DNA from: an uncultured Pseudomonadales bacterium
Lineage (GTDB): Bacteria; Patescibacteriota; Microgenomatia; UBA1400; UBA1396
Direction of reading: 5' to 3'
Assembly: GCA_964511175.1 (NCBI GenBank)
Contig: CAZEEI010000002.1
Location: 132,382 to 196,381, forward strand
DNA: 64,000 nucleotides
The notes below the pieces were generated by a model. It saw nothing but the letters and a program-made list of their open reading frames with translations. It was not told where the DNA came from and ran no database searches. This document shows positions 3,771 to 46,064 of this stretch, in pieces (position 1 is the first letter of the stretch; each line of letters begins with the position of its first letter). Both the position numbers and the translations under genes were made by a program.

Positions 3771-4361
3771 ATGCAACTTTCCCAAGTCGACAATATTGAG
3801 TTCGCCCTTTTAGGTTGGTCGGACCTCGACCGGCTGACCAAAAAGCTTAGCCAGGCGGTTTTGGCCAGCGGGCATCATTACGACCGCCTCGTTCCTTTGG
3901 CGAACGGCGGTTTAACGATGGTTCGCCATCTGGCCGATCGATTGGGTTTGCTCACAATTTCAACCATGCAGGTGGCTTTGTACCGGGGTGTAAATGAGCG
4001 GCATTCTCAACCAAAAGTGATTCAACCGTTATCGGTTTCGGTCAAAGGGGAGTCAATTTTGATTGTGGAAGATATTGTGGATACCGGTGCAACCCTGGAA
4101 TATACGCTGGCCGAACTTAAGCGTTTAGGAGCTAAGGAGGTACATACCGCCGCACTGATCCGCAAGTCACACGCCAGCGTTTTGCCGGAGTATGCCGCCT
4201 TGTTATTGGATCGTTGGGTCATTTTTCCTTACGAAACCCGCGAAACTATTACTTATTTGGCCGCCCGCTGGCAGAAACAAGGTTTGACGTCGGCACAAAC
4301 TGCTATTAATTTGCAAAAGATTGGCTATGGTGCTGGCGAGATTAAGCGTTATGCCTGCTAG
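3771..4361 (+). CDS. purine phosphoribosyltransferase (Gpt/XGPRT-like type I PRTase)
   Basis: PRPP-binding motif ILIVEDIVDTGATL, an LANGG loop, and a C-terminal DRWVIFPYE like the Gpt W-x-x-PW-E tail. Confidence 0.75.
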   Translation: MQLSQVDNIEFALLGWSDLDRLTKKLSQAVLASGHHYDRLVPLANGGLTMVRHLADRLGLLTISTMQVALYRGVNERHSQPKVIQPLSVSVKGESILIVEDIVDTGATLEYTLAELKRLGAKEVHTAALIRKSHASVLPEYAALLLDRWVIFPYETRETITYLAARWQKQGLTSAQTAINLQKIGYGAGEIKRYAC

Positions 4362-4773
4362 AACAAAGCCCGCCAGAAAACTGACTTCATCCCTATTTTG
4401 GTTGGGCGTTTTTATTTTTTGGGTCATCTTCTTTTTTCCGCACTGGTACGTTTTGAGTTACACCAAAATTTGGGAATTAAAACAACTAATGGGGCGGTCG
4501 CGCGAACAACAAATGCGAATTTTACATCCGGCCGCTATGGCGCGGTTGTTAACTTTGCGGCAAGAATTGGGCGCCTACTCTGTACCGGAAGTGGTAGTGG
4601 TGCTGCCAACGGATTCCAGCAAATTGCCACTGGCGGGTAATGCGCCCATTTTGCGGTCGGTGCTGTATCCTTATGTAGTAGTGCCGACCGCCGTTGCTGG
4701 TCTGGTTAACGTTCGGTTGCGCGCTTGTGATTCACTGACCATCCCCGATCCTTGTTGGGAGATTACGCCATGA
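4351..4773 (+). CDS. small membrane-anchored hypothetical protein
   Basis: The ATG at 4351 overlaps the gpt-like stop by 11 nt. Hydrophobic N-terminal segment FWLGVFIFWVIFFF. The listed ORF began at an upstream TTG. Confidence 0.4.
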   Translation: MPARTKPARKLTSSLFWLGVFIFWVIFFFPHWYVLSYTKIWELKQLMGRSREQQMRILHPAAMARLLTLRQELGAYSVPEVVVVLPTDSSKLPLAGNAPILRSVLYPYVVVPTAVAGLVNVRLRACDSLTIPDPCWEITP

Positions 4774-6125
4774 TCATCACCTTGTACTGGTTAACGCTTT
4801 GGCTTTATCTGGGGCTGGCTTTGCTTTGGCGCTGGCGTGGCGCTTTGCACTTGCGTGATATTTCTCTGGCTTTGCCGCTCGGTTTGTCGGTTAATACTTT
4901 GGGTGGTCTTTTGCTTTGGCTGGGGGGCATTGATTTGGCAACCATCACGCGTTGGAGTCAGATAGGCTTGGTATTGGTGTTGACCTACGTTGTGAGTGAT
5001 CGTTTACCACTGCGTAGTTTTCCAGTGCGAGTTGGCTTTAACGATGTTTACCGGCGATCACAGCAAATAATCCACCAGTTGGTTAATTGGCCGCTAGCTT
5101 GGCTAGTAGGTATGGTGATCTTTTCCCTAGCAGTGGTCTTAATTTGGCAGGGGACAGTTGAGCCGGTAACTTGGGACAATCTCTCTCTTTATGACTGGCG
5201 CGCCCAGCGGCTAGCTCAAGGTTGGCAGGTGAGTGATTTTTTGGTGCAGTTTAATGATCAACCGTCTTGGGCGATGTATGACTTTTTACATCCTCTCCTA
5301 CCCTCCATTATCGGCGCTTTTGTTTACCAAAGTGGTGGTATTCGAGTGCCGCTGATTAGCGCGGTTCTACTACTATGTGTCTTAAGCGAAGTTGGCAAAA
5401 CCTGGCGATCTTGGGCTGCCAGAATAGTTTTTGGTGTTTTGTCACTGGGCTCACCTTTGTTTTTTAAGGCCGCAGTTGAGGGCTATGGCGTTTGGTGGGC
5501 CGTGCTATTTTGGTGGTTATTTTTCCTTTTCGTCTGGCGACATTCTTTACATTACCGCTGGGAGCAACTGGTGGCTGGATTTTTCTTAGCGGCGGCCGTG
5601 CAGTCGCGTTTAAGCGAGCCTTATTGGATTATCGTAGTTATTTGGTTGCTAGGTCGTTATCACTGGCTAACAACCCTACCGGTAATATTTTCTTTTGTTA
5701 ACTGGCAAGTGTTGGTACGTTTGGCCGCACGTTTTACCAGCGGCCAGGTAGTGCGTTCGACTTATAGTGCAACTTGGTTGACGGTGCTGTTGAGTAATTT
5801 ATCACCAACCTTGGTAGGTGTCCTCTTCATTGATGGTCTCCTGCACAATCCGGTTCTGCCCTATTTTTTGGGAGTAGGCTTACTGGCTTTCTGGTTGCGA
5901 CAAGCCCAGGCTTGGTCGGCGTCACTGCGTACCTGTTTGGTACTGATTATTAGTTGGGGCATTATTTTACTGGGGGGAATGGCCGCTTTTTGGGCGCGTA
6001 ATCCGTCTACTTGGTCGGAGGTAGTGTTGGCTTTGCCGCGCGCCGTTTTACCATTGGCCGCCCTCTGCGTGGTTTTTATTACAGCGGCAGTAGACCGATT
6101 ATTCGGATCTGAAGTCCAAGCCTAA
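4770..6125 (+). CDS. polytopic integral membrane protein (about 451 aa), possibly a glycan polymerase or membrane glycosyltransferase
   Basis: ATGA overlap with the previous gene. More than 10 predicted TM helices, rich in W/L/G. It sits at the head of the glycan locus. Confidence 0.6.
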   Translation: MIITLYWLTLWLYLGLALLWRWRGALHLRDISLALPLGLSVNTLGGLLLWLGGIDLATITRWSQIGLVLVLTYVVSDRLPLRSFPVRVGFNDVYRRSQQIIHQLVNWPLAWLVGMVIFSLAVVLIWQGTVEPVTWDNLSLYDWRAQRLAQGWQVSDFLVQFNDQPSWAMYDFLHPLLPSIIGAFVYQSGGIRVPLISAVLLLCVLSEVGKTWRSWAARIVFGVLSLGSPLFFKAAVEGYGVWWAVLFWWLFFLFVWRHSLHYRWEQLVAGFFLAAAVQSRLSEPYWIIVVIWLLGRYHWLTTLPVIFSFVNWQVLVRLAARFTSGQVVRSTYSATWLTVLLSNLSPTLVGVLFIDGLLHNPVLPYFLGVGLLAFWLRQAQAWSASLRTCLVLIISWGIILLGGMAAFWARNPSTWSEVVLALPRAVLPLAALCVVFITAAVDRLFGSEVQA

Positions 6126-6174
6126 TTAGCTGCTAACTTGCACCTTGATATTTATTTGGTAAACTGGCGCCAAG

Positions 6175-6516
6175 ATGTTTATCTTCCAGGTGGCCATGGC
6201 GCTCTTTGCTTTTTTTATGGTTTATGTTTTGCGCATCCATTATCGCCAGCATCATCTTGCGGCAACCGAGTTTGGTGCTTGGGTAATGATCTGGTTCGGT
6301 TTTGTGATGTTGGCTTTATTTCCGGGGACAATGCGCGGCATCGCCGACTCACTTCATATCGGTCGGGTTTTCGATTTACTAGTAATCATCGCCTTCATGA
6401 TTTTAGCGGTGGCCGTATTTTTCACGCGTCTAACCGTATTGGAACTGCGTCATAAATTTGAGCTGCTGATTCGTCGGGAAGCAATTACTCAGGCTATATT
6501 ACCGGAACAACGATGA
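6175..6516 (+). CDS. DUF2304-family small membrane protein
   Basis: About 113 aa with two or three TM segments and the ...GIADSLHIGRVFDLL... core typical of DUF2304. It overlaps the GT2 gene start, which is the usual DUF2304-GT2 pairing. Confidence 0.7.
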   Translation: MFIFQVAMALFAFFMVYVLRIHYRQHHLAATEFGAWVMIWFGFVMLALFPGTMRGIADSLHIGRVFDLLVIIAFMILAVAVFFTRLTVLELRHKFELLIRREAITQAILPEQR

Positions 6517-7295
6517 AACTTCCCCGTATTTCGCTAATTACACCCAGCTATAACCAAGGCCGGTTTATCCGCCAAACTATCGACAGTGTACTAAAACAAA
6601 ATTATCCAGGTTTGGAATACTGGGTACAGGATGGTGGCTCCAGCGACGAGACACTAGAGGTTCTACGTTCCTATGGTTCTCGGGTGCAATGGGTTAGCCG
6701 CTGTGACCGCGGCCAAACCGATGCTATTAATCAGGGAATTAAGCAAACTAAGGGTGATATCGTGGGTTATCTTAACGCCGACGATCTACTTTTGCCCAAC
6801 GCGTTGTGGCGGGTGGCAATGGCTTTCACTCAGAACCCAACAGCCCAGTGGTTAACCGGCGACTACCGGATTATCAATGAAAATCAGCGTTTGATTGAAC
6901 AACCGCTGGTGGTTTATAAACAATGGCAGCGGCAGTTAGGTAAAACTTGGCCTCGCTGGTGGCCGGTTATTTTAGGGTTTAATAATCCGTTAGCGCAGCC
7001 CAGCACTTTTTGGCGCCGCTTGGTTCACCAGCGACTTGGCTATCTGGACGAGTCCTATCATTACGTTATGGATTACGATTGGTGGTGGCGGTTACTAAAA
7101 TTAGGATCGCCGCTGGTTCTTACGGAAGCACTGAGTGCTTTTCGGGTTCACGCTCAATCCAAAGGCGGCCAATATTTTCGCCGCCAATTCGCCGAACAAG
7201 AACAATGTGCGGCCAAACATGGTGTACCAGATATGATTCGCCGCGCCCAAGCTTGGCATAATCAATTAATTTGTGCCGTTTATGCGCGCCGGTAA
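6513..7295 (+). CDS. glycosyltransferase family 2
   Basis: N-terminal ISLITPSYNQGRFI...QDGGSSDET...DAINQG...NADD, the GT-A DXD fold signature. Confidence 0.85.
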   Translation: MKLPRISLITPSYNQGRFIRQTIDSVLKQNYPGLEYWVQDGGSSDETLEVLRSYGSRVQWVSRCDRGQTDAINQGIKQTKGDIVGYLNADDLLLPNALWRVAMAFTQNPTAQWLTGDYRIINENQRLIEQPLVVYKQWQRQLGKTWPRWWPVILGFNNPLAQPSTFWRRLVHQRLGYLDESYHYVMDYDWWWRLLKLGSPLVLTEALSAFRVHAQSKGGQYFRRQFAEQEQCAAKHGVPDMIRRAQAWHNQLICAVYARR

Positions 7296-8221
7296 GCGGC
7301 AATGGTTCGTTTCAGTCCAAGTTCAAAAGGCGTTTTAGCCTGGAAACCAAAAGCTTGCTGGGCGCGGGAAGGGTCTACCTGTCGCTGGGGTTGGCCGTCC
7401 GGGCGACTGGTGTCAAAAACCAAACGTCCGGTATAACCCACTAGTCTAGCAATGGTTTGGGCTAGATCAGAAATAGTAATGGCGTGATTGGCGCCAAGAT
7501 TAACCGGTTGAGGGTTGTTATAGTGCTGCACGGCTAAAGCAATGCCACGTGCAGCATCGGCCACATAAAGAAATTCGCGAGTAGCGCGGCCAGTGCCCCA
7601 AATGGTCACACTGGGTTGAGACTGTTGTTTAGCCTCCGCCAATTTACGGATTAAAGCTGGAATAACGTGCGAGTTTTGGGGATCAGACTTATCGCCTGGT
7701 CCATAAATATTGGTCGGCAAGAGATAAATAAAATTAAGGCCATATTGTGTTCGCGCCGCTTGCCCGTGTACCAACAACATTTTTTTAGCTAAGCCATAGG
7801 CGGCGTTAGTTTCTTCCGGATAACCACTCCACAAATCATCTTCGCGAAAGGGTACGGGTGTAAATTTGGGATAAGCGCAAATTGTGCCAATACCAATAAA
7901 TTTGCTAACTTTAGCCAAACGAGCCGCTTCAACTAAATGACTGCCCATAAGGATATTGTCATAGAACAAATCGGCCGGATAAAGCTGGTTATAGCCAATA
8001 CCACCCACATTCGCCGCCAGGTGGATGACTAGATCAACGCCGTCGACCGCGGCCTGACAAGCCGCAAATTGGCGCAAATCATATTTTTGCGAAGTAGGTA
8101 ATCGTAATTCCCGAGGGTGTAGTGAACGCAGTAATTTAACCAGGTGCTGGCCCAAGAAACCATGGCCACCCGTGACCAAGACGCGTTGTTTTTGCCAATA
8201 CCGAGATGACAGGGCGAACAT
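7280..8221 (-). CDS. fcl: GDP-L-fucose synthase (GDP-4-keto-6-deoxymannose 3,5-epimerase/4-reductase)
   Basis: Rossmann motif VLVTGGHGFLG, plus YPADLFYDN, NSHVIPALIRK and WGTGRATREFLYVAD, which closely parallel the E. coli Fcl motifs. Confidence 0.8.
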   Translation of the reverse strand: MFALSSRYWQKQRVLVTGGHGFLGQHLVKLLRSLHPRELRLPTSQKYDLRQFAACQAAVDGVDLVIHLAANVGGIGYNQLYPADLFYDNILMGSHLVEAARLAKVSKFIGIGTICAYPKFTPVPFREDDLWSGYPEETNAAYGLAKKMLLVHGQAARTQYGLNFIYLLPTNIYGPGDKSDPQNSHVIPALIRKLAEAKQQSQPSVTIWGTGRATREFLYVADAARGIALAVQHYNNPQPVNLGANHAITISDLAQTIARLVGYTGRLVFDTSRPDGQPQRQVDPSRAQQAFGFQAKTPFELGLKRTIAAYRRA

Positions 8222-8256
8222 TGGGTATTAGTATACTGCTCAACAGGAAAATTAAT

Positions 8257-8988
8257 ATGTCTTTACGTGCTAACCAGCCGGATGGCCGACAACACTACTT
8301 AACCAGTCAATACGATTCGCGTTTGCAGTGGTTGTCTTATTGGGAGCAGATTGAAGCGGTATGCCGCTTTCTGCCCCAAAAGCGGGGGCGTATTTTAGAG
8401 ATAGGTCCAGGTAACAGGACAGTATCTGGTTATCTGCGTAAAGAAGGCTATCACGTTACCACGGTTGATGCCGATCCCGTTCTTCAACCAGATGTGGTGG
8501 CGGATGTCACCACCTTACCTAATTTGGGCAATTTTGATTTGGTACTTTGCTGTCAGGTTTTAGAGCACCTACCGTTTTCTGAGTTTGAGACCGCTCTCAG
8601 CAACTTGGCCAGGATGCTGCGGCCGGGTGGTCGTTTGATTCTCAGCTTGCCTTATTCTTGTTTCTACTTAACCTGGAGCTGGAGTTGGTTCTACGCCAGT
8701 ATTTTTCGACCCTTATACCAAATGTTAGGCTGGGAGCCATTGGCCTCCCAAACCATCCAGTTGCGTATTCCTTGGTTTTTCTTACGTCATCCTTCAACTA
8801 AGGCGCACTTTTGGGAGGTGGGTCAACGGGGTTACTCCAAGGCGCTTGTTCGTCGTAAGTTAAGCCGCTATTTTATTTGGCGTTACGAAAAACACCAACC
8901 GCTTTATCCTTACCATTGGTACTTGATAGCCGATAAATCGCGGCCGATAAAAACAGATTGGGATCGGAATTGGTTATGGCTGGGTTAA
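8257..8988 (+). CDS. class I SAM-dependent methyltransferase
   Basis: Motif I ILEIGPGNRTVSGYL, an acidic motif II (TTVDAD), and the post-I VLEHL. Confidence 0.7.
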   Translation: MSLRANQPDGRQHYLTSQYDSRLQWLSYWEQIEAVCRFLPQKRGRILEIGPGNRTVSGYLRKEGYHVTTVDADPVLQPDVVADVTTLPNLGNFDLVLCCQVLEHLPFSEFETALSNLARMLRPGGRLILSLPYSCFYLTWSWSWFYASIFRPLYQMLGWEPLASQTIQLRIPWFFLRHPSTKAHFWEVGQRGYSKALVRRKLSRYFIWRYEKHQPLYPYHWYLIADKSRPIKTDWDRNWLWLG

Positions 8989-10067
8989 CGATCGGTCTCA
9001 ATCTTTTATATTTACTACCTAACCAAGTGGGCGGGACTGAATATTATGCCCGTTTTCTTATCGAGGAATTACAGCGTCTGGATCAAAAGAACCGCTACGT
9101 AATATTTTGTAACCGGGAAAATTGGTCAACATTCCAGTTAACCAATCCTCGCTGGCAGAAAGTGCGCTGCCCTGTTTTTGCCCGCTGGCGTCCCGGGCGC
9201 GTTTTATTTGAACAGTTAATTTTGCCTGGGCTGCTGCGTAAATTTCACATCGACCGACTTCACTCGTTGGGTTATGTGGGATTGCTTTTTACCAATTGCC
9301 CGCAAATAGTAACTATCCATGACGCCAATTGGCGCGACCAACTGGCCGATTTTCCGTTTTTTTCCTTATGGCTCCAGCGCTGGCTGATTGAGGCTAGTCT
9401 GGCCAAAGCGTGCTTAATTTTAACCGACTCCAATTTTGCTAAGCAGCGTTTAGTGTTTCATTTTCCTCAATACGCGGCCAAACTACGGGTTTTATCACCA
9501 GGATTATCGCCGGGGTGGTTGACCATTCTAAATCGATCATCACGGGAGAGGGCGTTAATTAAAAAACCTTATCTTTTGGTAGTGTCAGCGTTTTATCCTC
9601 ATAAACGAATCGATTATGTTTTGCGGCTTTGGTCCAAATTGGCTAACCGCTTGCCACAATACCAATTGGTAGTGGTTGGACAAAATGGTTGTCAAGCGTC
9701 GCTGATTAAGTATTGGTCGGCGCATTTACCGCGGGTGATCTATAAAGCCAAGGTTTCTGCAACCGATTTAGCCGCACTTTATCGCCATGCCGCCGTTTTA
9801 TTACACCCTAGTATTTATGAGGGTTTTGGCTATCCAGTTTATGAAGCGGCACAAGTTGGTTTACCAATTGTGGTGGGGTATCGTGACCTTTATGACTCAC
9901 GATTAGCGCCGCGCTTAATAGAATTAAGTTTTAATAATCAGATCGATATCGATTTGATTGTAAGATTAGCCAAACAGGCTAAGCGAAAGTCTGCTCCAAA
10001 ATGGTTGTCTACTCAACATCGGCGCGCTGTGGCTCAACTGATTCGCTGGTATCAGGAATTGGAATGA
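8976..10067 (+). CDS. glycosyltransferase family 1 (GT4-type, GT-B)
   Basis: The C-terminal half has LLVVSAFYPHKRIDYVL...LHPSIYEGFGYPVYEA...GLPIV, the EX7E GT4 signature. Confidence 0.8.
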   Translation: MAGLTIGLNLLYLLPNQVGGTEYYARFLIEELQRLDQKNRYVIFCNRENWSTFQLTNPRWQKVRCPVFARWRPGRVLFEQLILPGLLRKFHIDRLHSLGYVGLLFTNCPQIVTIHDANWRDQLADFPFFSLWLQRWLIEASLAKACLILTDSNFAKQRLVFHFPQYAAKLRVLSPGLSPGWLTILNRSSRERALIKKPYLLVVSAFYPHKRIDYVLRLWSKLANRLPQYQLVVVGQNGCQASLIKYWSAHLPRVIYKAKVSATDLAALYRHAAVLLHPSIYEGFGYPVYEAAQVGLPIVVGYRDLYDSRLAPRLIELSFNNQIDIDLIVRLAKQAKRKSAPKWLSTQHRRAVAQLIRWYQELE

Positions 10068-10074: not shown

Positions 10075-11172
10075 ATGATTTTGCTGTTAGATAATATTCC
10101 TACACCAGCCACAACGCACCGTTACAACGCTCTTAACCGGGTGTTGGATGGTCAATTAATGGTTTGGTATCAACGTTATTGCGAACCAAATCGTTCTTGG
10201 CGTGTAGTGCCTCAACCACAGTTTCCAACTGTTGTTTTAGGTCAGAGTTGGGGCGCAACTTTTTGGTCGCTGTTTGGCCAACTCAATCGTCAGAAGACGC
10301 AAATCGACGCGGTCATTATCCGAGGTTGGAACACCTTTAGTTATCTCTATGCGGTGGCTTGGTGTCGTTATTACCGTGTACCGCTGGTTCTCTGGTCAGG
10401 CAGCACGTCTTGGGAGAGGCACTGGCTGCGTTTGCCGGTAGCCCCGATTGTACGCTGGGTGGTTGGCAGTGCATCTAGTTATCTAGCCTATGGCAGCCGC
10501 GCGCGGGCCTATCTAATTAGTTTGGGTGCTGACCCCGCCAAAGTACGGATTTTCTGGAACTCAGTTGATTTAGCCCACTTCGCCCGCGCGCGCCGTCTTC
10601 AGCCAGCCGCCGCCCGCCAGCAATTAAAACTCCCTAGCCATAAACGAATTATCCTTTTTGTTGGCCAACTAATCGAACGAAAAAACATTTTATCTTTGGT
10701 TTCTGCCTTCAATCGAGTCAGCCGCTGTTATCCGCAATTACATTTAGTAGTCGCGGGGGTCGGTCCTTTGACTTCACAAATTGAGCCAAGTTCGAATCTA
10801 ACTTTACTAGGGCATCAGGAGTATCGCCAATTACCATTGCTCTATGCCGCCGCTGATGTATTAATTCTGCCATCATGTGAGGAAGTTTGGGGTTTAGTAG
10901 TTAATGAAGCCATGGCTGCCGGTTTGCCTTGTGCGGTTTCGGTAACAGCCGGTGTGGCCGCTGATCTAGTCATACCCGGCAAAACCGGCTGGCGCTTACT
11001 TCCCACGCCGTTTGGTATCGAGTTAGTTCTGCGACAGATCGCTAAAGCTAGTTTTCGGGAATTAAAACTCTTAGGAAATCAGGCGGCTAAACAGGTAAGT
11101 TTAACTGACGCCAACGTTACCGCACGGCGTCTATTTACATGGCAAAACCAGCATAAGAAACGCGGGGAATGA
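10075..11172 (+). CDS. glycosyltransferase family 1 (GT4-type)
   Basis: ILFVGQLIERKNI...LILPSCEEVWGLVVNEAMAAGLP, an EX7E motif. Confidence 0.8.
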   Translation: MILLLDNIPTPATTHRYNALNRVLDGQLMVWYQRYCEPNRSWRVVPQPQFPTVVLGQSWGATFWSLFGQLNRQKTQIDAVIIRGWNTFSYLYAVAWCRYYRVPLVLWSGSTSWERHWLRLPVAPIVRWVVGSASSYLAYGSRARAYLISLGADPAKVRIFWNSVDLAHFARARRLQPAAARQQLKLPSHKRIILFVGQLIERKNILSLVSAFNRVSRCYPQLHLVVAGVGPLTSQIEPSSNLTLLGHQEYRQLPLLYAAADVLILPSCEEVWGLVVNEAMAAGLPCAVSVTAGVAADLVIPGKTGWRLLPTPFGIELVLRQIAKASFRELKLLGNQAAKQVSLTDANVTARRLFTWQNQHKKRGE

Positions 11173-11725: not shown

Positions 11726-11818
11726 ACCTGGGTATTATGCGCGCTGGTTTAGTCCGCCGTCAATTACTTTGGTGAATTAATCTAGACCAGACTGACTTTC
11801 TGGCGTAGAATCCAGAAT

Positions 11819-12988: not shown

Positions 12989-13008
12989 ATTGAAATGAGG
13001 GAAGAAAA

Positions 13009-13365: not shown

Positions 13366-13374
13366 AAAAGCAAC

Positions 13375-13971: not shown

Positions 13972-14052
13972 AAGAACCCAGAATATCAGAAAAGCTTAAT
14001 TTTTACTAACAAAGCTTTTTAGAATAGCCGGTTGTATGATGATGGTTGAGTT

Positions 14053-16193: not shown

Positions 16194-16218
16194 AACAAGT
16201 TACTACAAAAAGCTAGAT

Positions 16219-35198: not shown

Positions 35199-35237
35199 AT
35201 TGGGGGGAGTCTACTATGATATGGCCAGTTGCTCAAG

Positions 35238-35311: not shown

Positions 35312-35364
35312 GAGACAACGTATATTGTACTACACCAGAAGAAAATGATACTCTAATTCCAGAT

Positions 35365-38594: not shown

Positions 38595-38625
38595 AAAGGG
38601 GAATTATACTAGAGTTACTTAATAA

Positions 38626-38655
38626 TTGACAAATCCGTTAAATTGTTTATATAAT
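38626..38655 (+). promoter_or_regulatory. sigma70-type promoter (TTGACA, 18-nt spacer, TATAAT)
   Basis: Exact consensus -35 at 38626-31 and exact -10 at 38650-55. Confidence 0.55.
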
Positions 38656-38660
38656 CGCGA

Positions 38661-38750
38661 AGTACTCGTGAGGGACCTCCCGAAACCGGATAGGTACTTG
38701 TACCAAAGCTGGAAAAGCGAGTATAGCAGAAAAGCCCTTAGGGCTTTTTT
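38661..38750 (+). ncRNA. candidate small structured RNA (~90 nt), class unknown
   Basis: Bounded by the consensus promoter and an intrinsic terminator. Internal helices: GTACTCG/CGAGTAT closing stem, GGGacctCCC hairpin, GGTActtgTACC hairpin. Confidence 0.4.
38731..38750. terminator. intrinsic (rho-independent) terminator, likely bidirectional
   Basis: aaaGCCCttaGGGCtttttt; the minus strand also has a T-rich tract after the hairpin. It overlaps the stop of the 38738 gene. Confidence 0.6.
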
Positions 38751-39157
38751 GTTGTTTCTTTACTCTTGATCGAAAAATAATGCGGTCTGGAATGATTCAG
38801 CTGACGAACTATTACTTGAATACAACGTTTTTTTCCATCAACAACTACCGCGCAGCTCACTTCCCAATAAATAGCTTGGCGAGTATTCCCTCGGTATTTG
38901 ATCAATCGCGTCTCAACCCTAGTTGGCGGTGCCGACGCATTTTCGATAACCTCTTGAGCAAACAAGAATAAACTCAAGCGTTTATTTATTTCCAAACGGT
39001 TTCTTCGATGACCATTACCGTCGAAGAAAAGGTGATTCCAACCATGGCGGTTGAAGACTATTTTGCATTGAATTGCCGGGCAAAAGATAGGTCTAGTTTT
39101 GAGGTTTTTGTAAACGTCTTTGACTTTTTTGATAGATAACGCAGAGGTGTCTGACAT
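38738..39157 (-). CDS. hypothetical protein (139 aa)
   Basis: Basic, Cys-containing ORF with no recognised motifs; upstream of it lies a secreted-protein gene. Confidence 0.4.
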   Translation of the reverse strand: MSDTSALSIKKVKDVYKNLKTRPIFCPAIQCKIVFNRHGWNHLFFDGNGHRRNRLEINKRLSLFLFAQEVIENASAPPTRVETRLIKYRGNTRQAIYWEVSCAVVVDGKKRCIQVIVRQLNHSRPHYFSIKSKETTKKP

Positions 39158-39176
39158 TGGTGTAAACGAAGAATCT

Positions 39177-40994
39177 TTACGGGAATTTTGTTAACAATAT
39201 TTGCCTAAAATGTTGTCTTAGACCCATAGCCAGCCAATTAGTTAACCATCCGCCAGAGACACTCTGGTTCAGCATTAATTCGAAACCGCGCTGAACAGAC
39301 TGTGCATCAGCTAAAATAGCAGTGTTTAAAAGTTTGTCTTGATACTCCAGAAGCAAATCGACTAAAGCTGGATGGCGCAGTCGATCTGATAGATAAAGCT
39401 CGATTAACTGCGGACGGCTGAGTAAACTCATTGATGTGTTGCTGGTGGTGATCTGCGGCTGATCGGCTGTTAAATCAACATTCCAGCTGAGCGGCGTCGT
39501 CTCGGACGAAATGAGATAGGAAATAACACTGACTTTGCCGGTAGCAGTGTAGGCTGCCAGCCAAATAGGCGAAAACGCTTGAGTGTCGGAAAAAATAAGC
39601 TCTACCTTTGCCGGTGGCTTAGCTAAATCGTAGAGAAAATAGGGTGTTTTAGTGGCTAAAGTTGTTTCCACTAGGCGTACAGGTGTTAATTGGTTGCCAG
39701 TCGTATCTTGAAAAACAACTTGCGTACTTAACGGTGTAATAACCGTAATCCCGCTTAAGTCAGTATGGCTGGGCACAAACAGCCGCGCCGAAGTAAAAGT
39801 ATTAGCATAGCTGTCTAAACGTAAGCGAGTATAAAAAGGATCATGAATATTAAAGTCAAGCCTACCTGGCCCAAAACCATAGGCGGTAATAAAATGTCCT
39901 GGCTCGGCCAGAATTACCGGTTGGTTATTTTGGATTTGTTGGCGTAGCCAAGCCAATTGGTTAGTGGGATTGGCGTAAGTCATTTCGAGAGTTGGCACTT
40001 CGGTATGACTTTGGGAAAATAAATAACTCAGACGACTGAGGGCACGCCAGTTAACGCTGCCATCTGGTAAATAGCCGTCTACTTCTTGTTGCAGCCAAAG
40101 GTTTAGAGAACCGGGATCAAGCGTGGTTTCGTCCGGTAAAGCGTCAATGCCGTAGTAACGCAACACCATTACCGCACTAACCAACGCACAACCCCAGTAT
40201 TTAATCAGTGGACTTTGTGGCGCCCACAGAGTGGCTGTATCGTAAATTTGACTGCGCCAGGGGTCATCGGTTTGTTTCAACAACAGCACTTCTAGATTTT
40301 TAGTTTGAGCCAATGATTCAACGCGAAAATCGTCAAAGCGCACATAAGAATGACTTACTGCACCCACACTTGCGGCTAAACCCGGCTTGCCCTGTTCCAA
40401 TTGAGGATCACTGGGTGATTCGAAAATATCTAGAACCAACTGGTCGTCCAGCCATAATTGGAGGTTTCGGGCTGATAAATCATATTCCCAAAATACGTTA
40501 TACCAGTGGTTCTCTTGGAAATTGAAAGCTCTGGTTCCATTTTGCCAGACATAACTTTGTCCCTTAATCATTTTTTCGGCCTGAATACCGGTTCCAAAAA
40601 GATGGATTCCCAAACGATTGGCACTATCTTGCCAACGAATTAGCAGATTACGATCCATATTACGATTAGATATAAACAACCGCAGGGAAACTCGTTGGAA
40701 GCGCTGATCGGCGACGGCGTTAGTAAGCGGCACAATTTCTGTAGCACAGGGAATACTACCATCGATGTTAATTTCCACTGCTCCGTTCACTACTTGCCAC
40801 TGTGGTCTGCCGCTGGGGGAAACACAGGTATAGTGAGGATCGTCCAAGGCGGCATTGCGCACTTCGGTCCACTGCCACTGGCTGGCAAAATCATCCGTCC
40901 ACAGGACTTCCGCCGCCCGTACCGGTCGAATTAAAATCAACACCAAAAGCAAGCCTATTAGGATGGCTCGATTTTTCATAATCTTAGTTTGCAA
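39177..40994 (-). CDS. secreted protein with an N-terminal lectin/ConA-like region and a putative papain-fold (C39-like) cysteine peptidase domain
   Basis: Signal peptide MKNRAILIGLLLVLILIRPVRA. The YWGCALVSAVMVLRYYG block resembles the C39/C39_2 catalytic Cys region. Confidence 0.55.
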   Translation of the reverse strand: MQTKIMKNRAILIGLLLVLILIRPVRAAEVLWTDDFASQWQWTEVRNAALDDPHYTCVSPSGRPQWQVVNGAVEINIDGSIPCATEIVPLTNAVADQRFQRVSLRLFISNRNMDRNLLIRWQDSANRLGIHLFGTGIQAEKMIKGQSYVWQNGTRAFNFQENHWYNVFWEYDLSARNLQLWLDDQLVLDIFESPSDPQLEQGKPGLAASVGAVSHSYVRFDDFRVESLAQTKNLEVLLLKQTDDPWRSQIYDTATLWAPQSPLIKYWGCALVSAVMVLRYYGIDALPDETTLDPGSLNLWLQQEVDGYLPDGSVNWRALSRLSYLFSQSHTEVPTLEMTYANPTNQLAWLRQQIQNNQPVILAEPGHFITAYGFGPGRLDFNIHDPFYTRLRLDSYANTFTSARLFVPSHTDLSGITVITPLSTQVVFQDTTGNQLTPVRLVETTLATKTPYFLYDLAKPPAKVELIFSDTQAFSPIWLAAYTATGKVSVISYLISSETTPLSWNVDLTADQPQITTSNTSMSLLSRPQLIELYLSDRLRHPALVDLLLEYQDKLLNTAILADAQSVQRGFELMLNQSVSGGWLTNWLAMGLRQHFRQILLTKFP

Positions 40995-41038: not shown

Positions 41039-41962
41039 ATGTTTCAAGCAAAACAACCGATTAGTTTAGTGGTAACGGTGAAAAATGATGCGGCCGGACT
41101 GCAGCGTTTACTAGCGTCCCTGGTTGAACAGACGCGCTTGCCAGAAGAGGTAATTTTGGTTGTAGCGGACTCAACTGATCAAACTTTAGCGGTGGCACAA
41201 GCGTGGCAACCAGCCAATATAAAGGTGCGAGTCGCTGTTTTGCCGGAAGCAAATCGTTCCGTGGGGCGCAATTATGGAGTGAACTTGGCTCAGCACGATT
41301 TAATCGTTTTTACCGATGCCGGTTGTGTGCCGGAGTTAACCTGGTTGGCGGAATTAACTGCACCATTTAAAGATAGTAAGGTTAAATTAGTGAGCGGTTA
41401 TACCGCGGGTGAGGGGCAAAATTCCTGGAAAGAGGCACAAATACCGTTTGTGCTGGTGCCGCTGGTCAAGGTTGAGGATCATCCTTTGCCGGCAACTCGC
41501 AACATGGCGATCCGACGAACAGTTTTTACAGATATCGGTGGTTTTCGCGCCGATCTTAATTATGCGGAAGACTTTGAACTGGCACGTCGATTGCGCGCGG
41601 CCGGTATTCAGGCGATGTTTATACCGGAAGCAGTGGTCCACTGGCGGCCGCGCGCCACGATCGGTGGTTTTTTCCGAATGATTATTCATTTAACAGCCGG
41701 GGATATCACGGCAGGAATTATTCGGCCAGGTTTATTAACAATGTGGCTTCGCTATTTGGTTTTTTCGGCAATCTTGCTTTGCCAACCAATCGTGGGGTTA
41801 ATTCTTTACTTAGCCTATTTGATTTTTAAAACCGCGCAGCAAAAGTTTTCGTATAAAAAAACTTATTTAGTAGCCATGGGTCTTCAAATAATTGGCGATT
41901 TAGCAGTGTTGGTTGGTTCACTGATCGGAGTCGGAGTAAAAATACAGAAAATTCGAACGTGA
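41039..41962 (+). CDS. glycosyltransferase family 2 with C-terminal TM helices
   Basis: ISLVVTVKND... and TDAGCVP, a GT-A signature; hydrophobic C-terminus. Confidence 0.8.
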   Translation: MFQAKQPISLVVTVKNDAAGLQRLLASLVEQTRLPEEVILVVADSTDQTLAVAQAWQPANIKVRVAVLPEANRSVGRNYGVNLAQHDLIVFTDAGCVPELTWLAELTAPFKDSKVKLVSGYTAGEGQNSWKEAQIPFVLVPLVKVEDHPLPATRNMAIRRTVFTDIGGFRADLNYAEDFELARRLRAAGIQAMFIPEAVVHWRPRATIGGFFRMIIHLTAGDITAGIIRPGLLTMWLRYLVFSAILLCQPIVGLILYLAYLIFKTAQQKFSYKKTYLVAMGLQIIGDLAVLVGSLIGVGVKIQKIRT

Positions 41963-42089
41963 TTGTTGACGCGATTTATCGAAATGGCCAAAACCGACAG
42001 TTGTACAACTATTGGTTTTACGGTTTTTGATCTATTTACCTCGCTAACCGTCTTGCGTCCCACAGCCTTTCAGGGGAAAATAGGAACCA

Positions 42090-43349
42090 ATGTTGAAAAA
42101 AATATTTAATCGTGTCCAGCGTTCACCGGCTTTGCGCGGTATTTCTAGTTTTGCCTCTTTGCGTTTTGCGACCAAATTTATGACCTTAATCCGCCTGGCT
42201 TTCATCGCTCATTTCATTGGTCCCGCTGAATTAGGGGCTTACCAATTGTCACTTTTAGCTATCGCTATCAGCGAAGTTTTTACCGAAACGGGTATTAATG
42301 TTATGTTACTCAAACACCCCCAAAAATTAAGCCAATACCTGGATACAGCTTGGGTAGTGTCAATTATCCGCGGCGCACTCATTACCGCTGGTATTGTTAT
42401 TTCCACCCCTTATCTGGCTGACTTCTACGGCGGTGCGCATACCGCCACTTTTCTTTACGTGGCTGCTTTCATTCCTTTTTTCCGCGGCTTTATTAATCCG
42501 GCGGTAATCACTTTTCAGCAAAAACTACAATTTGGTCGAGAATCAGGTTTTCGCCTAGGATTACAATTACTCGATATCATCACCGGCGCCTGGTTGGCTT
42601 GGTACTTGCAAAGCGCGGTTGGCTTAATTATTGGTTTACTAATTGGTGTTCTGGGTGAGGTAGTGTTTTCCTTCCTGCTATTTGATACCGTGCCACGGCC
42701 GTTACAAGCCAAATGGTCACTAGTTGTTAAGCTATACCAAGAAACCAAGTTTATTATTGGCAATGGCATTCTGCATTACTTAACCGAAAATTTGGATGAT
42801 TTGGTTATTGGTAAAGTTTTTGGTACGGCTGGTTTAGGACTGTATAACGCCGCTTATAGTTTGGCCAGTTCGGTAACGAACGATTTTGGCTCGATTGCCG
42901 GGCAAACTTTATACCCGATTTACGCCCAGCTGCATGCTCAAAAAAAAGTGGTTAGGCCTTTGTTGATCAAATCTTCGGTTTGGTCCCTGGCCTTTTTAAT
43001 TTTAGTGGCTGTTCCTTTACTGGGTTTTACCCAACCCCTGATTCAGCTTTTGTTGGGAGAGCAGTGGCTGGCAACCGTGCCACTGATTCGTTTACTTTTT
43101 TTGGCCGGGGTGGTTAAGAGTTTTGTTACTAGTTGGAACCCAGTAGCGATTCTGGCTGATTTGCTCTACCACCACGTGATTATTAACGTCATTACGATCG
43201 TCATTATGGTTGGTGGAATTATTTATTTAGCCCAACCCCTAGGCTTAAACGGCGCCGGCTGGGCGGTATTATTGGCAGTGGCCGTAGTGCAACCTTACGC
43301 CTGGTGGGTAACTTATCAAGCCGTGCAGAGGTTAGACCATGGCCGTTGA
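42090..43349 (+). CDS. polysaccharide flippase (Wzx / MOP superfamily), second copy
   Basis: About 12 TM helices and a PF01943-like N-terminal pattern. It overlaps the next GT2 start. Confidence 0.75.
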   Translation: MLKKIFNRVQRSPALRGISSFASLRFATKFMTLIRLAFIAHFIGPAELGAYQLSLLAIAISEVFTETGINVMLLKHPQKLSQYLDTAWVVSIIRGALITAGIVISTPYLADFYGGAHTATFLYVAAFIPFFRGFINPAVITFQQKLQFGRESGFRLGLQLLDIITGAWLAWYLQSAVGLIIGLLIGVLGEVVFSFLLFDTVPRPLQAKWSLVVKLYQETKFIIGNGILHYLTENLDDLVIGKVFGTAGLGLYNAAYSLASSVTNDFGSIAGQTLYPIYAQLHAQKKVVRPLLIKSSVWSLAFLILVAVPLLGFTQPLIQLLLGEQWLATVPLIRLLFLAGVVKSFVTSWNPVAILADLLYHHVIINVITIVIMVGGIIYLAQPLGLNGAGWAVLLAVAVVQPYAWWVTYQAVQRLDHGR

Positions 43350-44094
43350 AACTTCGGTCATTATCGTTAATTACCGGGCCGATGTTTACGTCAAGCGCTT
43401 ACAAAACACTTTGCGTGATTTGCCCAACAGCGAAGTCATCGTGATCGACCACAGCGACGGTCGGCGGGGTTATGGTGCCGGTTGTAACCAAGGTGCGCGG
43501 CAAGCTCGGGGCAAATATTTGGTGTGTTTGAACGCGGACGTCATGATTAAACCCGCTGATATTGACCGCTTGGTTAAAGTACTTCAGGATCAGCCCGCAA
43601 TTGGGCTGGTGGGGCCGCAGATTCGTAATGCAAGCGGGGAAGTACAAATTTCCTGTTCGGCAATACCAACGCCTTTTTTAGCTTTAATCGAATATTCCTG
43701 GTTGCGCAATGTGCCAGGACTGCGCCATTTTTCTCAAGCTTATCGGTTAAACGGTTTTGATCACCGCACTTCCCGAGTGGTGCCGGCCATCGGCGGCAGT
43801 TGTTTAGTGATGCGCCGCCGCGACTGGCAGGCCATTGACGGTTTTGATGAGAAGTTATTTTTGTATTTTGAAGAATTCGATCTGGCCAAACGTCTACACG
43901 ATCAGCTGAATTTAGCCACTTATTTTTGTGCGGAAGCTGTCCTAACTCATTTTGGCCAGGTTTCCACCAAACAAACCGCCCAAGCGCGACAGCACTTTCA
44001 ACGCTCGCGGCATTATTGGTTAGGCAAGGCTTATGGTTGGCGCGGTCGATTGACCGCTTTTTTACTCAAACTGATGGAGAAATATCATGGCTGA
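43339..44094 (+). CDS. glycosyltransferase family 2
   Basis: VIIVNYRAD...LNADV, a GT-A signature. Confidence 0.8.
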   Translation: MAVETSVIIVNYRADVYVKRLQNTLRDLPNSEVIVIDHSDGRRGYGAGCNQGARQARGKYLVCLNADVMIKPADIDRLVKVLQDQPAIGLVGPQIRNASGEVQISCSAIPTPFLALIEYSWLRNVPGLRHFSQAYRLNGFDHRTSRVVPAIGGSCLVMRRRDWQAIDGFDEKLFLYFEEFDLAKRLHDQLNLATYFCAEAVLTHFGQVSTKQTAQARQHFQRSRHYWLGKAYGWRGRLTAFLLKLMEKYHG

Positions 44095-44857
44095 ATCTAC
44101 ACTAACCACGGTAATTTTGGTACATAACCAAGCCGAACAAGTGGCTGATTTATTGGCTACTGTCAGTCGGCAAAGCGACCAAATTATTTTGCTCGACGAT
44201 AATTCGACTGATAATCTAACGGCATTGGCCGAACAATATGGCGCACAGATCAAACGGCATAAATTAGGGAATAATTTTGCTGCCCACCGTAACTGGGTAT
44301 TGACCCAAATTACCACCGATTGGACCTTATTCTTAGACGCAGATGAGCAATGTTCACCAGCTTTATGGTCCCAAATTAAGCAGGCTATCGCCTCAAATCA
44401 AGTCGATGCCATTTGGCTGCGACGGCAAGACTGGTTTTTGGGACAAAAGTTGCGTCATGGGGAAGTGGGTCAAATTACACTCCTACGCTGTGCCAGAACA
44501 AAGTTGGGAAAGGGCAAGTGGCAACGACCAATACACGAGACGTGGGTCGTGCCAACCCATCGGTCAGTTATTTTACCTACACCGCTGGAACATCGACCTC
44601 ACCCCACATTAACCAGTTTTTTAAATAAATTACACTGGTATGCCAGCTTGGAGCCGGTTTCTCGACCTCGTTATTCTTTAGTTCGTTTCATTGGCGAGAT
44701 GTTGATTTTTCCACTGGCCAAGTTTAGCCAAAATTATTTTTGGCGTCTAGGCTGGCTGGATGGCTGGCCAGGATTGGTACACGCCAGTTTAATGTCGTAT
44801 TATTCCCTCATCACGCGGGTCTTTATTTATGAAGCGCAGTACACTCACCATTCCTGA
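44087..44857 (+). CDS. glycosyltransferase family 2
   Basis: TVILVHNQAEQV...LLDDNSTDN...LDADE, a GT-A signature. Confidence 0.75.
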   Translation: MAESTLTTVILVHNQAEQVADLLATVSRQSDQIILLDDNSTDNLTALAEQYGAQIKRHKLGNNFAAHRNWVLTQITTDWTLFLDADEQCSPALWSQIKQAIASNQVDAIWLRRQDWFLGQKLRHGEVGQITLLRCARTKLGKGKWQRPIHETWVVPTHRSVILPTPLEHRPHPTLTSFLNKLHWYASLEPVSRPRYSLVRFIGEMLIFPLAKFSQNYFWRLGWLDGWPGLVHASLMSYYSLITRVFIYEAQYTHHS

Positions 44858-46064
44858 AACACTTCTGGTTGTAATATTGAGTCTAGCCACTCTGGGTCAA
44901 TTTGAGCGTTGGTTAACGCCGTTGGGTCAAGTTAGCTGGCATGAAATAGGAATGGGTATTTTTATCATCTATGTGGCTAACCTTACACACCATCGGTTCC
45001 GATTGGTATTTAACCAATGGTTATTTTTTTTCACCACTACCTTTTTACTCTGGACTCTTTTTACCACCATCCTCAATGCTTATTGGTTGGGCTCGCCGCT
45101 ATTATTAAAAATCGGTGGTGCTTACTTAGCACGCCTAACTTTGTATCTATTGTTCGGTGCTAGCGTTTGGCTGGCAACGCGGATTGGTTTAATACGTCGC
45201 CGAAGGCTACAGTTAATGGTGCTCATGTGGTTTTTGGTAATGGTGGGGCTGGGTATCGGTCAATATTTATTCTTTCCTGACGCACGCCTTTTGGTCGAGT
45301 TGGGTTGGGATGACCATTTGAACCGCGCTTTTGGTACCTTGCTAGACCCTGGCTTTTTCGGCTTATTGATGGCGATGGGGAGTATTTGGTCCTTAACTAC
45401 TTGGTCGATTGAAAACAAACAGCAAGCTCAAACCTGGTGGCGGCCCGTGGTGTTTGGTGTTTTATTGTTGGCGCTTACTCTTTCTTTTTCGCGTGCTAGT
45501 TATTTAGCTTTTATAGTTGGGATACTGTTTTTGGCTTGGGTTAGGCGGTCGCGGCGAACGCTCTTATTTATTCCTTTGCTGGTCATGGCTTTAGTACTAG
45601 TACCCAAAGATGGCGGCGGTGAAGGCCAAAAGTTAACCCGTACCAACAGCGTTGCGGCACGGGTCGAGGTAGCGGAATTTCATACCAAAGGTTTAACTCT
45701 AACCGAGATGCTGATCGGTCGAGGTTGGTATTACGAGAGTGTACGTCAATTACACGTGACTGGAATAAAATCGGCAACAAATGATCAAATAAAAGCAAGC
45801 GATTTACCTCAACATGCCCAGGCGGTTGATAATTCTTACCTACATATTTTTCTTTCGACCGGCATCGTTGGCCTGATTCTTTTTGGTGTGGCAGTAATTA
45901 CCTATCTTAAGGGCTTAAGTTTCCGACCAGTTTTGGCAGTTATTGCCGTGTTGTTGACACATAGTGTTTTTAGTACCGGGTTGTTTTATCCCTGGGCGTT
46001 GTTGATCTTAGGACTGATAGAATCATTATCGGCACCATGCTGGGATAAAAATAATGAAAATTAG
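44829..46064 (+). CDS. O-antigen ligase/polymerase family membrane protein (Wzy_C/WaaL-like)
   Basis: About 10 TM helices with a periplasmic loop carrying SFSRASYLAF (Wzy_C-like). Confidence 0.65.
   Translation: MKRSTLTIPETLLVVILSLATLGQFERWLTPLGQVSWHEIGMGIFIIYVANLTHHRFRLVFNQWLFFFTTTFLLWTLFTTILNAYWLGSPLLLKIGGAYLARLTLYLLFGASVWLATRIGLIRRRRLQLMVLMWFLVMVGLGIGQYLFFPDARLLVELGWDDHLNRAFGTLLDPGFFGLLMAMGSIWSLTTWSIENKQQAQTWWRPVVFGVLLLALTLSFSRASYLAFIVGILFLAWVRRSRRTLLFIPLLVMALVLVPKDGGGEGQKLTRTNSVAARVEVAEFHTKGLTLTEMLIGRGWYYESVRQLHVTGIKSATNDQIKASDLPQHAQAVDNSYLHIFLSTGIVGLILFGVAVITYLKGLSFRPVLAVIAVLLTHSVFSTGLFYPWALLILGLIESLSAPCWDKNNEN

Follow-up and report, generated by a model that had tools for sequence, protein, structure and literature searches.

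Five glycan modules and genes for three apparent routes of sugar transport across a single membrane in a 64-kb stretch of a Microgenomates-group bacterium

Gene content of the glycan stretch

A 64-kb stretch of the 201-kb contig CAZEEI010000002.1 (the window) was analysed for its surface-glycan genes, which were examined between 4.3 and 46.1 kb. The gene inventory was based on a six-frame listing of open reading frames (ORFs) and on Pfam and NCBIfam scans, covering ORFs of at least 100 aa across the window. ORFs were considered glycan-associated if they belonged to a glycan-related family or held a conserved place within a glycan module. Thirty ORFs fell into this class, together covering about 31.3 of 41.7 kb (~75%), while the remaining ~10 kb is occupied by housekeeping and orphan genes. 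In an earlier reading made without database searches (the sequence-only reading), the stretch was described as one locus consisting almost entirely of glycan machinery. Glycan genes do make up most of it, but "almost entirely" overstates their share, and the single locus gives way to a patchwork of five glycan modules (A, M1, the ATP-binding cassette (ABC) cluster, M2 and E) parted by lepB, tyrS, tRNA-Val, Dus and orphan genes, with one 17-kb island of foreign appearance that the related locus L005 lacks. Together, the five modules point to three ways of moving sugar across a single membrane.

Seven single-domain genes of glycosyltransferase family 2 (GT2; starting at 6513, 19169, 21604, 33871, 41039, 43339 and 44087) and one gene with a triple domain give a total of eight genes with ten Pfam GT2 domains, fewer than the nine or more that had been counted besides the triple protein. 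The rest of the earlier catalogue was recovered: two family 4 (GT4) genes, the 1261-aa triple-GT2 protein, two flippases at 14053 and 42090 (both of MOP/Polysacc_synt families), a Wzy/WaaL-like protein at 44829, two large polytopic proteins (given as 4770 and 16219, found at 4752-6125 and 16219-18048), the Wzm/Wzt exporter and the DUF2304-GT2 pair at 6175-7295. All the sugar-modifying enzymes that had been named (fcl, an RmlD-like and another short-chain dehydrogenase/reductase (SDR), a TIM barrel, a flavin adenine dinucleotide (FAD) oxidoreductase and a C-methyltransferase) and the interspersed lepB, tyrS, Dus and tRNA-Val could also be located.

ABC export cluster and backbone enzymes

The exporter, the multidomain glycosyltransferase and a pair of deoxysugar enzymes are encoded as follows.

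22581-23918, plus strand: NDP-hexose C-methyltransferase-type enzyme (Methyltransf_14 211 bits, Methyltransf_13 85 bits)
23924-24820, minus strand: RmlD-like reductase (RmlD_sub_bind 146 bits; TIGR01214 rmlD 136 bits, cutoff 224)
24817-28602, minus strand: 1261-aa multidomain GT2 protein (three Pfam GT2 stretches, 244 bits)
32370-33170, minus strand: Wzt, 266 aa (ABC_tran PF00005, 88 bits)
33118-33891, minus strand: Wzm (ABC2_membrane PF01061, 81 bits)
33871-34743, plus strand: divergent GT2 beside Wzm (Pfam GT2)

The best NCBIfam models for Wzt were TagH (210 and 193 bits) and galactan Wzt (191 bits), and those for Wzm were galactan Wzm/RfbD (82 bits) and KpsM (56 bits). Judged by family scores, the pair belongs to the TagH/Wzt-Wzm glycan-export class, and since all scores lie below the equivalog cutoffs they establish the class and not the substrate. 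A non-glycan ABC class was rejected on the same scores. The pair is 57-77% identical to Wzm/Wzt pairs in dozens of low-GC metagenome contigs, in which the glycosyltransferase neighbours change. The Wzt of the window carries no C-terminal carbohydrate-binding domain, and there is no room for one because its gene ends 2 nt from a convergent methyltransferase gene; a chain terminator combined with such a domain is a feature of only a subset of ABC-dependent systems. In L005, Wzt (13234-14487) has 417 aa, and the Wzt of L160 contains Pfam Wzt_C. Between the close relatives, a C-terminal extension, possibly a carbohydrate-binding module, has been gained or lost.

The three GT2 domains of the 1261-aa protein span residues ~365-606, ~730-941 and ~971-1213, and their boundaries and DxD motifs were mapped. 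No exact match to the protein is on record; its best PDB match is a chondroitin synthase, and a 941-aa orthologue (40% identity) is encoded two genes from Wzt in L005. Residues 1-360 match no Pfam domain, align to a GT2-containing region of the L005 orthologue and include a DxD-like FDEDT motif at 244-248, so that a degenerate fourth GT-A-like domain is possibly present at ~130-360. The cytoplasmic multidomain polymerising glycosyltransferase that belongs to an ABC pathway is found here in the triple-GT2 protein, together with its linkage in L005, and this protein is a candidate for the backbone polymerase. From family knowledge, the C-methyltransferase next to the RmlD-like reductase suggests a C-branched 6-deoxyhexose.

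Module M1 and its GT-C family

M1 is a six-gene block (16219-22584) located inside the low-GC island.

16219-18048, minus strand: GT-C transferase, 609 aa, 11 transmembrane (TM) segments, predicted GT-C fold
18070-19179, plus strand: DAO-family FAD oxidoreductase
19169-19984, minus strand: GT2a, 271 aa
19968-20792, minus strand: xylose-isomerase-like TIM barrel (best NCBIfam models, keto-sugar epimerases)
20789-21616, minus strand: atypical SDR
21604-22584, plus strand: GT2b, 326 aa, with two C-terminal TM segments

For the 609-aa protein no Pfam, NCBIfam or PDB sequence match was obtained, and a word search gave one homologue. A full HMMER scan revealed a family of 1163 cluster representatives (167 of them below 1e-30), mostly 600-640 aa long. 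In a 60-member alignment, D123, F125, H126, G128, E129, G153, D157, D263, R411, D413 and H416 are near-invariant and the C-terminal soluble domain is conserved. Pfam gave nothing for 59 of these members and one weak PMT_2 match for the other, with no match in ten longer members carrying N-terminal extensions; a profile search of PDB with the family alignment returned chance matches only. The predicted structure of the protein has a GT-C fold, and is the first confident model for this Pfam-dark family.

Against PgfS (90.7 bits) and ArnC (48.7 bits), GT2b aligns over its entire length, and the matches of GT2a include AglJ, a dolichyl-phosphate-hexose transferase and PpgS, all of these below equivalog cutoffs. 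On this similarity, both enzymes are assigned to the polyprenyl-phosphate glycosyltransferase type.

Orthologues of all six genes are contiguous in loci of very different composition, L158 (GC 0.42), L160 (GC 0.60) and L162/L163 (GC 0.69), usually with an additional gene for a GtrA flippase, and L073 and L157 have partial sets. The immediate neighbours of the block in L160 are Wzm and a Wzt with Wzt_C. Proteobacterial plasmids carry homologues of the five soluble or peripheral enzymes (29-49% identity): on the p2 plasmid of Azospirillum sp. TSA2s the core has an ABC ATPase, two gmd-type genes and numerous glycosyltransferases as neighbours, and on a plasmid of Cereibacter it occurs with GtrA. 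Plasmid pA22P4 of Psychrobacter sp. ANT_P22 (L166, 10.8 kb) carries an M1-type cassette that includes a small multidrug resistance (SMR) transporter and, as its polytopic protein, a different one of 479 aa; the plasmid's cargo besides mob and rep genes is essentially this cassette alone. The PLSDB gene table has no entry for the GT2b homologue (29% identity) encoded at positions 5401-6357 of pA22P4. In the window, the sole flippase candidate for M1 is Wzx1, 0.9 kb away. The pattern of a conserved donor-making core with an exchangeable flippase and membrane transferase is the one expected of a portable side-chain glycosylation system.

The five-enzyme core (SDR, TIM barrel, GT2a, FAD oxidoreductase and GT2b) may, as a tentative reading that we hold with less than even confidence, be an uncharacterised, horizontally mobile and phylum-spanning cassette for the synthesis of a rare sugar attached to polyprenyl phosphate, the product being flipped by a GtrA, SMR or MOP protein and transferred by interchangeable membrane enzymes. 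A GT2 would load a sugar onto polyprenyl phosphate, the FAD enzyme would oxidise a hydroxyl, the TIM-barrel enzyme would epimerise beside the keto group and the SDR would reduce it, after which the sugar would be flipped and transferred by the GT-C enzyme. This mechanism is proposed from family chemistry and from analogy with the DprE1/DprE2-AftA and ArnC-ArnD-ArnEF-ArnT systems; read in this way, the cassette may parallel the DprE1/DprE2 branch while being fed by nucleotide sugars (GT2-loaded). A literature search gave no description of the M1 cassette or of comparable glycan loci from the Candidate Phyla Radiation (CPR). In a 2024 study on three-component systems for pentofuranose, the authors state that they are aware of no further epimerases acting in side-chain glycosylation (PMC11127046).

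Flippases and module E

14053-15342, plus strand: Wzx1, MOP/PST-family flippase, 12 TM (Polysacc_synt 57 bits, Polysacc_synt_3 40 bits)
41039-41962, plus strand: GT2 with two C-terminal TM segments (Pfam)
42090-43349, plus strand: Wzx2 (Polysacc_synt_3 PF13440, 154 bits)
43339-44094, plus strand: GT2 (Pfam)
44087-44857, plus strand: GT2 (Pfam)
44829-46064, plus strand: Wzy_C protein (PF04932, 45 bits, cutoff 31.7)

The two flippases are unrelated to each other (BLASTP E = 0.11). For Wzx1, NCBIfam gave no match and a single-sequence search of PDB found nothing; its orthologues share 46% identity in L005, where the gene stands beside Wzm/Wzt, and 33% in L093. Wzx1 is a candidate GacK-like flippase. 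The top NCBIfam models for Wzx2 were the MOP flippase PRK10459 (89 bits) and TuaB (67 bits). Neither protein matches MurJ/MVIN, and a MurJ identity was rejected for both on family scores, a lipid II role of Wzx1 being formally possible by sequence. The sequence-only reading had named, as the finding that would speak against it, a MurJ-type second Wzx together with an ABC system of an unrelated exporter class; what was found is a PRK10459/TuaB-like Wzx2 and an ABC pair of the TagH/Wzt-Wzm class, so that by its own criterion the reading is not refuted.

Module E (41039-46064) is a tight plus-strand cluster with overlapping genes in the order GT2 (with two TM segments), Wzx2, GT2, GT2 and Wzy_C. 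The Wzy_C domain is shared by polymerases, ligases and O-oligosaccharyltransferases and does not separate them, and no NCBIfam or PDB match was found for the protein.

Module A

4752-6125, plus strand: polytopic membrane protein, 457 aa (451 as called), at least 7 TM
6175-6516, plus strand: DUF2304 small membrane protein, 113 aa, 3 TM (PF10066, 50 bits)
6513-7295, plus strand: GT2 of the DUF2304 pair (84 bits)
7280-8221, minus strand: Fcl-like SDR (NCBIfam GDP-L-fucose synthase 267 bits, cutoff 500)
8206-8988, plus strand: S-adenosylmethionine (SAM)-dependent methyltransferase (Pfam Methyltransf_23/11)
8958-10067, plus strand: GT4 (Glycos_transf_1/Glyco_transf_4)
10075-11172, plus strand: GT4 (Glycos_transf_1/Glyco_transf_4)

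The stop of the DUF2304 gene overlaps the start of the GT2 gene. GacJ is a 113-aa DUF2304 protein with three TM segments that activates GacI, a synthase of undecaprenyl-phosphate-N-acetylglucosamine, and the mycobacterial counterpart of GacJ/GacI is Rv3632/PpgS (10.1101/180810). The pair in module A appears GacJ/GacI-like, for the DUF2304 part by size, topology and family. The 457-aa protein has two homologues only (~44% identity), gave no Pfam, NCBIfam or PDB match and only chance matches in a profile search of PDB; it is a candidate acceptor-side transferase for the DUF2304-GT2 pair.

Module M2

28672-29544, plus strand: orphan X1
29541-30500, plus strand: orphan X2
30502-31092, plus strand: HAD-IB phosphatase (Pfam)
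31068-31730, plus strand: MobA/IspD-like nucleotidyltransferase (Pfam)
31700-32368, plus strand: SAM methyltransferase (Pfam)

This five-gene order recurs in L074/L075 and in L088 (L074 9035-12789; L088 13311-16988), with identities of 30-35% for X2, 51-57% for the HAD phosphatase, 48-50% for the nucleotidyltransferase and 45-46% for the methyltransferase. The cassette is located directly downstream of Wzt in L088 and tail to tail with Wzt in the window. For X1 it is the position that is conserved: the X1 proteins of L074 and L088 are 31% identical to each other, and the one of the window has no BLAST similarity to them. The nucleotidyltransferase shows weak similarity to IspD (E = 7e-7), ribitol-5-phosphate cytidylyltransferase (19.7 bits) and CTP_transf_3. 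X2 found no match on plasmids, and its AlphaFold2 model from a two-sequence alignment (pLDDT 49) was unusable. As a guess, M2 could make and transfer a nucleotide-activated, methylated substituent for the ABC-exported chain.

Just upstream of the M2-like cassette of L074 (contig GC 0.33), positions 1-8947 encode four tandem paralogues of 732-756 aa with no Pfam domain and no similarity to the 726-aa orphan of the window described below.

Host and low-GC island

The best relatives of TyrS (57-70% identity) come from metagenome-assembled genomes (MAGs) of Candidatus Pacebacteria, Woesebacteria and Microgenomates, and by its sequence affinities the host is a Microgenomates-group bacterium of the CPR/Patescibacteria. 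CPR bacteria are generally regarded as monoderm and have small genomes. Third Party Annotation (TPA) or MAG records with a Microgenomates-like TyrS (L002, L004, L005, L007, L014 and L068) are titled 'uncultured Pseudomonadales', 'Pseudomonadales bacterium' or 'Gammaproteobacteria', and are probably taxonomic mislabels.

L005, the nearest relative with usable flanks, was used as the synteny reference. Its gene order is phosphoribosyltransferase (PRTase), LepB, TyrS, Wzx1 (46%), Wzm (72%), Wzt (63%), a 323-aa protein and the 941-aa multi-GT2 protein. Compared with it, the window has two extra blocks, module A (4.3-11.2 kb, in the PRTase/lepB gap) and a 17-kb block (15339-32368, in the Wzx1/Wzt gap). 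As L005 keeps the Wzm-Wzt-multiGT2 core beside Wzx1, module A and the 17-kb island are insertions relative to L005. The 15 genes of the island have a GC content of 0.381 against 0.463 elsewhere, and a GC content at third codon positions of 0.327 against 0.443 (Mann-Whitney p = 3.6e-8). The island is thus compositionally foreign, which is evidence for its recent import by horizontal acquisition. A repeat search for att-like or insertion sequence (IS) boundaries at its ends gave short chance matches only; none of the scanned ORFs has an integrase or transposase domain, and no tRNA lies at the ends. A 284-aa orphan ORF at the left edge of the island (15339-16193, between Wzx1 and the GT-C gene) has no TM segment, no family match and an intermediate GC content of 0.43.

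Comparison with known systems

The rhamnose-rich wall polysaccharides of streptococci, lactococci and enterococci combine an ABC exporter, a Wzx-family flippase, GacI/GacJ, GT-C-type transferases and sometimes Wzy, with the primer enzyme encoded elsewhere (10.1101/180810; PMC8327497). The gacA-L locus of the group A carbohydrate (GAC) and the cwps and epa loci share with the window an RmlD-type enzyme, cytoplasmic backbone glycosyltransferases, a Wzm/Wzt-type exporter, a GT2 + DUF2304 pair, a Wzx-family flippase, polytopic transferases (GacL/WpsJ) and sometimes a Wzy polymerase. Their priming enzyme (TagO/GacO) is encoded elsewhere, as would be the case for the window, and their decoration regions vary and are exchanged horizontally (10.1101/180810; PMC8327497). 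The window differs from them in its CPR rather than Firmicute host, in the absence of rmlABC and of a rhamnosyltransferase-specific signal, in the giant triple-GT2 protein as putative backbone enzyme, in modules broken by housekeeping genes, and in a GT-C transferase from a Pfam-dark family; the trio of FAD oxidoreductase, TIM barrel and SDR is not described there.

In Citrobacter and others, O-antigen loci of the ABC-dependent type are known to include a MATE flippase, a GT-C transferase and a lipid-sugar synthase as additions (PMC11127046). The three-component system of Citrobacter youngae O1/O2 consists of PPPRS, a MATE flippase and a GT136 GT-C transferase, with an auxiliary SDR epimerase (PMC11127046). 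It shares with the window the ABC backbone locus, a MOP/MATE-superfamily flippase, a lipid-phosphate-sugar synthase, a GT-C enzyme that bears an additional soluble domain at its C-terminus, and auxiliary enzymes changing the lipid-linked sugar (PMC11127046), the likeness of the GT-C enzymes being one of fold and additional domain. In contrast, the predicted donor synthase of the window is a nucleotide-sugar-dependent GT2 (GtrB/ArnC/PgfS-like) and not a UbiA-type enzyme dependent on phosphoribosyl pyrophosphate, and the auxiliaries are an FAD oxidoreductase, a TIM barrel and an SDR instead of a single SDR or DprE1/E2.

The mycobacterial decaprenyl-phospho-arabinose branch (GtrA-like Rv3789, the FAD oxidase DprE1, the SDR DprE2 and the GT-C enzyme AftA) resembles M1 by analogy only, as the enzymes are non-homologous (DAO family versus the FAD_binding_4 type of DprE1) and M1 has an extra TIM barrel and two GT2s. 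Compared with the late Arn steps (the GT2 ArnC, ArnD, the SMR flippase ArnE/F and the GT-C enzyme ArnT), M1 would use redox tailoring and not deformylation; CPR bacteria are not expected to have lipid A.

Proposed routes and alternative explanations

In the ABC route, a backbone polymer would be made in the cytoplasm by the triple-GT2 enzyme, aided by the neighbouring GT2 and GT4 enzymes, the C-methyltransferase and the RmlD-like reductase, on a polyprenyl-diphosphate primer whose phosphoglycosyl transferase would be encoded elsewhere, and would be exported by Wzm/Wzt. In a lipid-phosphate-monosaccharide route, GT2 enzymes of the GtrB/ArnC/PgfS/PpgS type (GT2a and GT2b of M1 and probably the GT2 of module A) would load single sugars on polyprenyl phosphate. 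The FAD oxidoreductase, the TIM-barrel epimerase-like enzyme and the SDR of M1 probably remodel the lipid-linked sugar, which would be flipped, possibly by Wzx1, and attached outside the membrane by the 609-aa GT-C enzyme and perhaps the 457-aa protein. In the Wzx/Wzy_C route, module E would build an oligosaccharide unit, Wzx2 would flip it, and the Wzy_C protein would polymerise or ligate it. The sequence-only reading had found Wzx/Wzy-type and ABC-dependent export in one locus and taken this to suggest two distinct polymers or a composite assembly. Both classes are indeed present and a composite route is plausible, but the combination by itself is no sign of anything exotic: a mixture of ABC and Wzx components is ordinary in kind, being textbook in Gram-positive rhamnan-type polysaccharides and in some O-antigens. 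The third route, with polyprenyl-phosphate monosaccharide donors and GT-C transferases, had been missed.

With modest confidence, a single ABC-exported backbone decorated extracytoplasmically is considered the most likely product of the five modules. It is favoured because the published loci that combine ABC, Wzx and GT-C components make one polymer (10.1101/180810, PMC8327497, PMC11127046), and further supported by the position of M1 beside Wzm/Wzt in L160 and of M2 beside Wzt in the window and L088. The analysis shows the gene families, the GT-C fold, the conservation of modules and the foreign composition of the island; the convergence on one polymer, the substrates and the acceptor are what we infer. 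Several observations weigh against a single decorated polymer. Module E is 6 kb away from the ABC cluster with unrelated genes between, and may serve a different glycan. The 457-aa protein fits no fold, and hhalign related its family neither to the GT-C family nor to the Wzy_C protein; its GT2 neighbour at 6513-7295 matches best with the N-terminal regions of PgaC and TuaG, the PpgS model not being among its matches. M1 lacks in the window the flippase gene accompanying it elsewhere (GtrA in L158, L160, L162 and Cereibacter, SMR on pA22P4). Seven other relatives (57-62% TyrS identity) have no TyrS neighbours in common with the window, and since housekeeping genes are scattered among the modules and synteny is short-lived, neighbouring genes in CPR genomes are only weakly indicated to act together. 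In domain scans of the ORFs of the 64-kb window, rmlA/B/C, gmd, an LCP ligase, a Wzz-type regulator of chain length and a phosphoglycosyl transferase for priming (WbaP/WecA type) were all missing, so that the pathway cannot be closed from its sequence; PF02397, PF00953 and PF02706 had zero matches among the scanned ORFs, and such enzymes may be encoded elsewhere.

Two or more independent glycoconjugates would account for these points differently: the ABC cluster with M1 and M2 would make one polymer, module E an unrelated heteropolysaccharide or capsule and module A another, and their co-location would reflect only a variable 'glycan neighbourhood' of a compact genome. The separation of the modules by housekeeping and orphan genes, the difference in composition between the island and the rest, the occurrence of the ABC core alone next to TyrS in L005 and the lack of relation between Wzx1 and Wzx2 all agree with this possibility, which we nevertheless regard as rather doubtful, given that characterised monoderm systems build one polymer from the same mixture of components (10.1101/180810; PMC8327497) and that M1 and M2 recur beside Wzm/Wzt in independent loci. 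Protein O-glycosylation, instead of or besides a wall polysaccharide, is unlikely; in that case a lipid-linked glycan would be transferred to an S-layer protein or pilins by the Wzy_C protein, working as a PglL/WsaB-like O-oligosaccharyltransferase, and the GT-C enzyme would glycosylate Ser/Thr-rich segments like PgfM/PMT, and the Wzy_C domain itself, as noted, is compatible with either function. One glycan plus a teichoic-acid-like polyol-phosphate polymer, an example given in the sequence-only reading, would be exported by a transporter of TagGH type, and M2 would be the source of a CDP-activated alcohol. TagH as the top NCBIfam model of Wzt (210, 193 bits), the weak IspD/TarI- and CTP_transf_3-like character of the M2 nucleotidyltransferase beside a HAD phosphatase, and the junction of M2 with Wzt in two loci would suit it. 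It is nonetheless quite improbable: domains of the TagF/TagB (PF04464), LicD, TagD and lipoteichoic acid (LTA)-synthase type are absent from all ORFs, relaxed thresholds included, the TagH scores lie far under the equivalog cutoffs and are almost equalled by that of galactan Wzt (191 bits), and X1 and X2 are orphans. A metagenome mis-assembly, in which a chimeric contig would have made the large locus an artefact, was also considered, as the GC shift is abrupt and the source is a MAG-type contig. This explanation is hardly credible and was rejected, since an independent Logan contig (31.6 kb, SRR8925802), 100% identical to window positions 15219-19048, crosses the left junction from Wzx1 into the island; moreover, the triple-GT2 protein of the island has its orthologue inside the syntenic ABC cluster of L005.

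New in this stretch are the CPR host, the M1 cassette together with the GT-C family, and the evidence that 17 kb were acquired recently. A very small genome would thereby spend ~31 kb on three routes of glycan export and decoration, 17 kb of it apparently imported recently, which suggests that the surface glycan coat is an interface that evolves fast, for example in host attachment or phage evasion. For glycobiology, the value lies in the M1 cassette and the GT-C family, which are conserved in CPR and high-GC bacteria as well as on plasmids of proteobacteria and frequently adjoin ABC-dependent loci; pA22P4, which carries the cassette almost alone on 10.8 kb, offers a directly testable system.

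Interrupting and flanking genes

11135-11725, minus strand: lepB (Peptidase_S26, 159 bits), in the first interruption (11135-13971)
11819-12988, plus strand: tyrS (tRNA-synt_1b, 226 bits), in the first interruption
within 11135-13971: two small orphan ORFs, in the first interruption
34740-40994: second interruption, with a 152-aa orphan, tRNA-Val, a 726-aa orphan, Dus, an LPD3-like protein of 139 aa and a 605-aa secreted protein
35237-35311, minus strand: tRNA-Val (tRNA search), just beyond the ABC cluster (Wzt/Wzm and the GT2 at 33871-34743)
37509-38594, minus strand: Dus

Ten orphan ORFs compared with Pfam at E <= 5 gave no credible match. The 726-aa orphan (35365-37545) has no match anywhere, including a single-sequence search of PDB. 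The 139-aa protein (38738-39157) matches LPD3 (large polyvalent protein-associated) weakly, and the 605-aa protein (39177-40994), secreted or membrane-anchored, has a weak C39-like (Peptidase_C39_2) domain. An Rfam scan revealed three tRNAs and nothing else. Two of them, tRNA-Pro and tRNA-Lys (3666-3740 and 47117-47193), bracket the whole glycan region, with no partial tRNA duplicates seen. Outside the glycan interval, the window consists of housekeeping genes: hisS, mgsA, FKBP, eno, gltX, a D-Ala-D-Ala carboxypeptidase gene, recJ, cca, secA and a gene for a RecD-like helicase.

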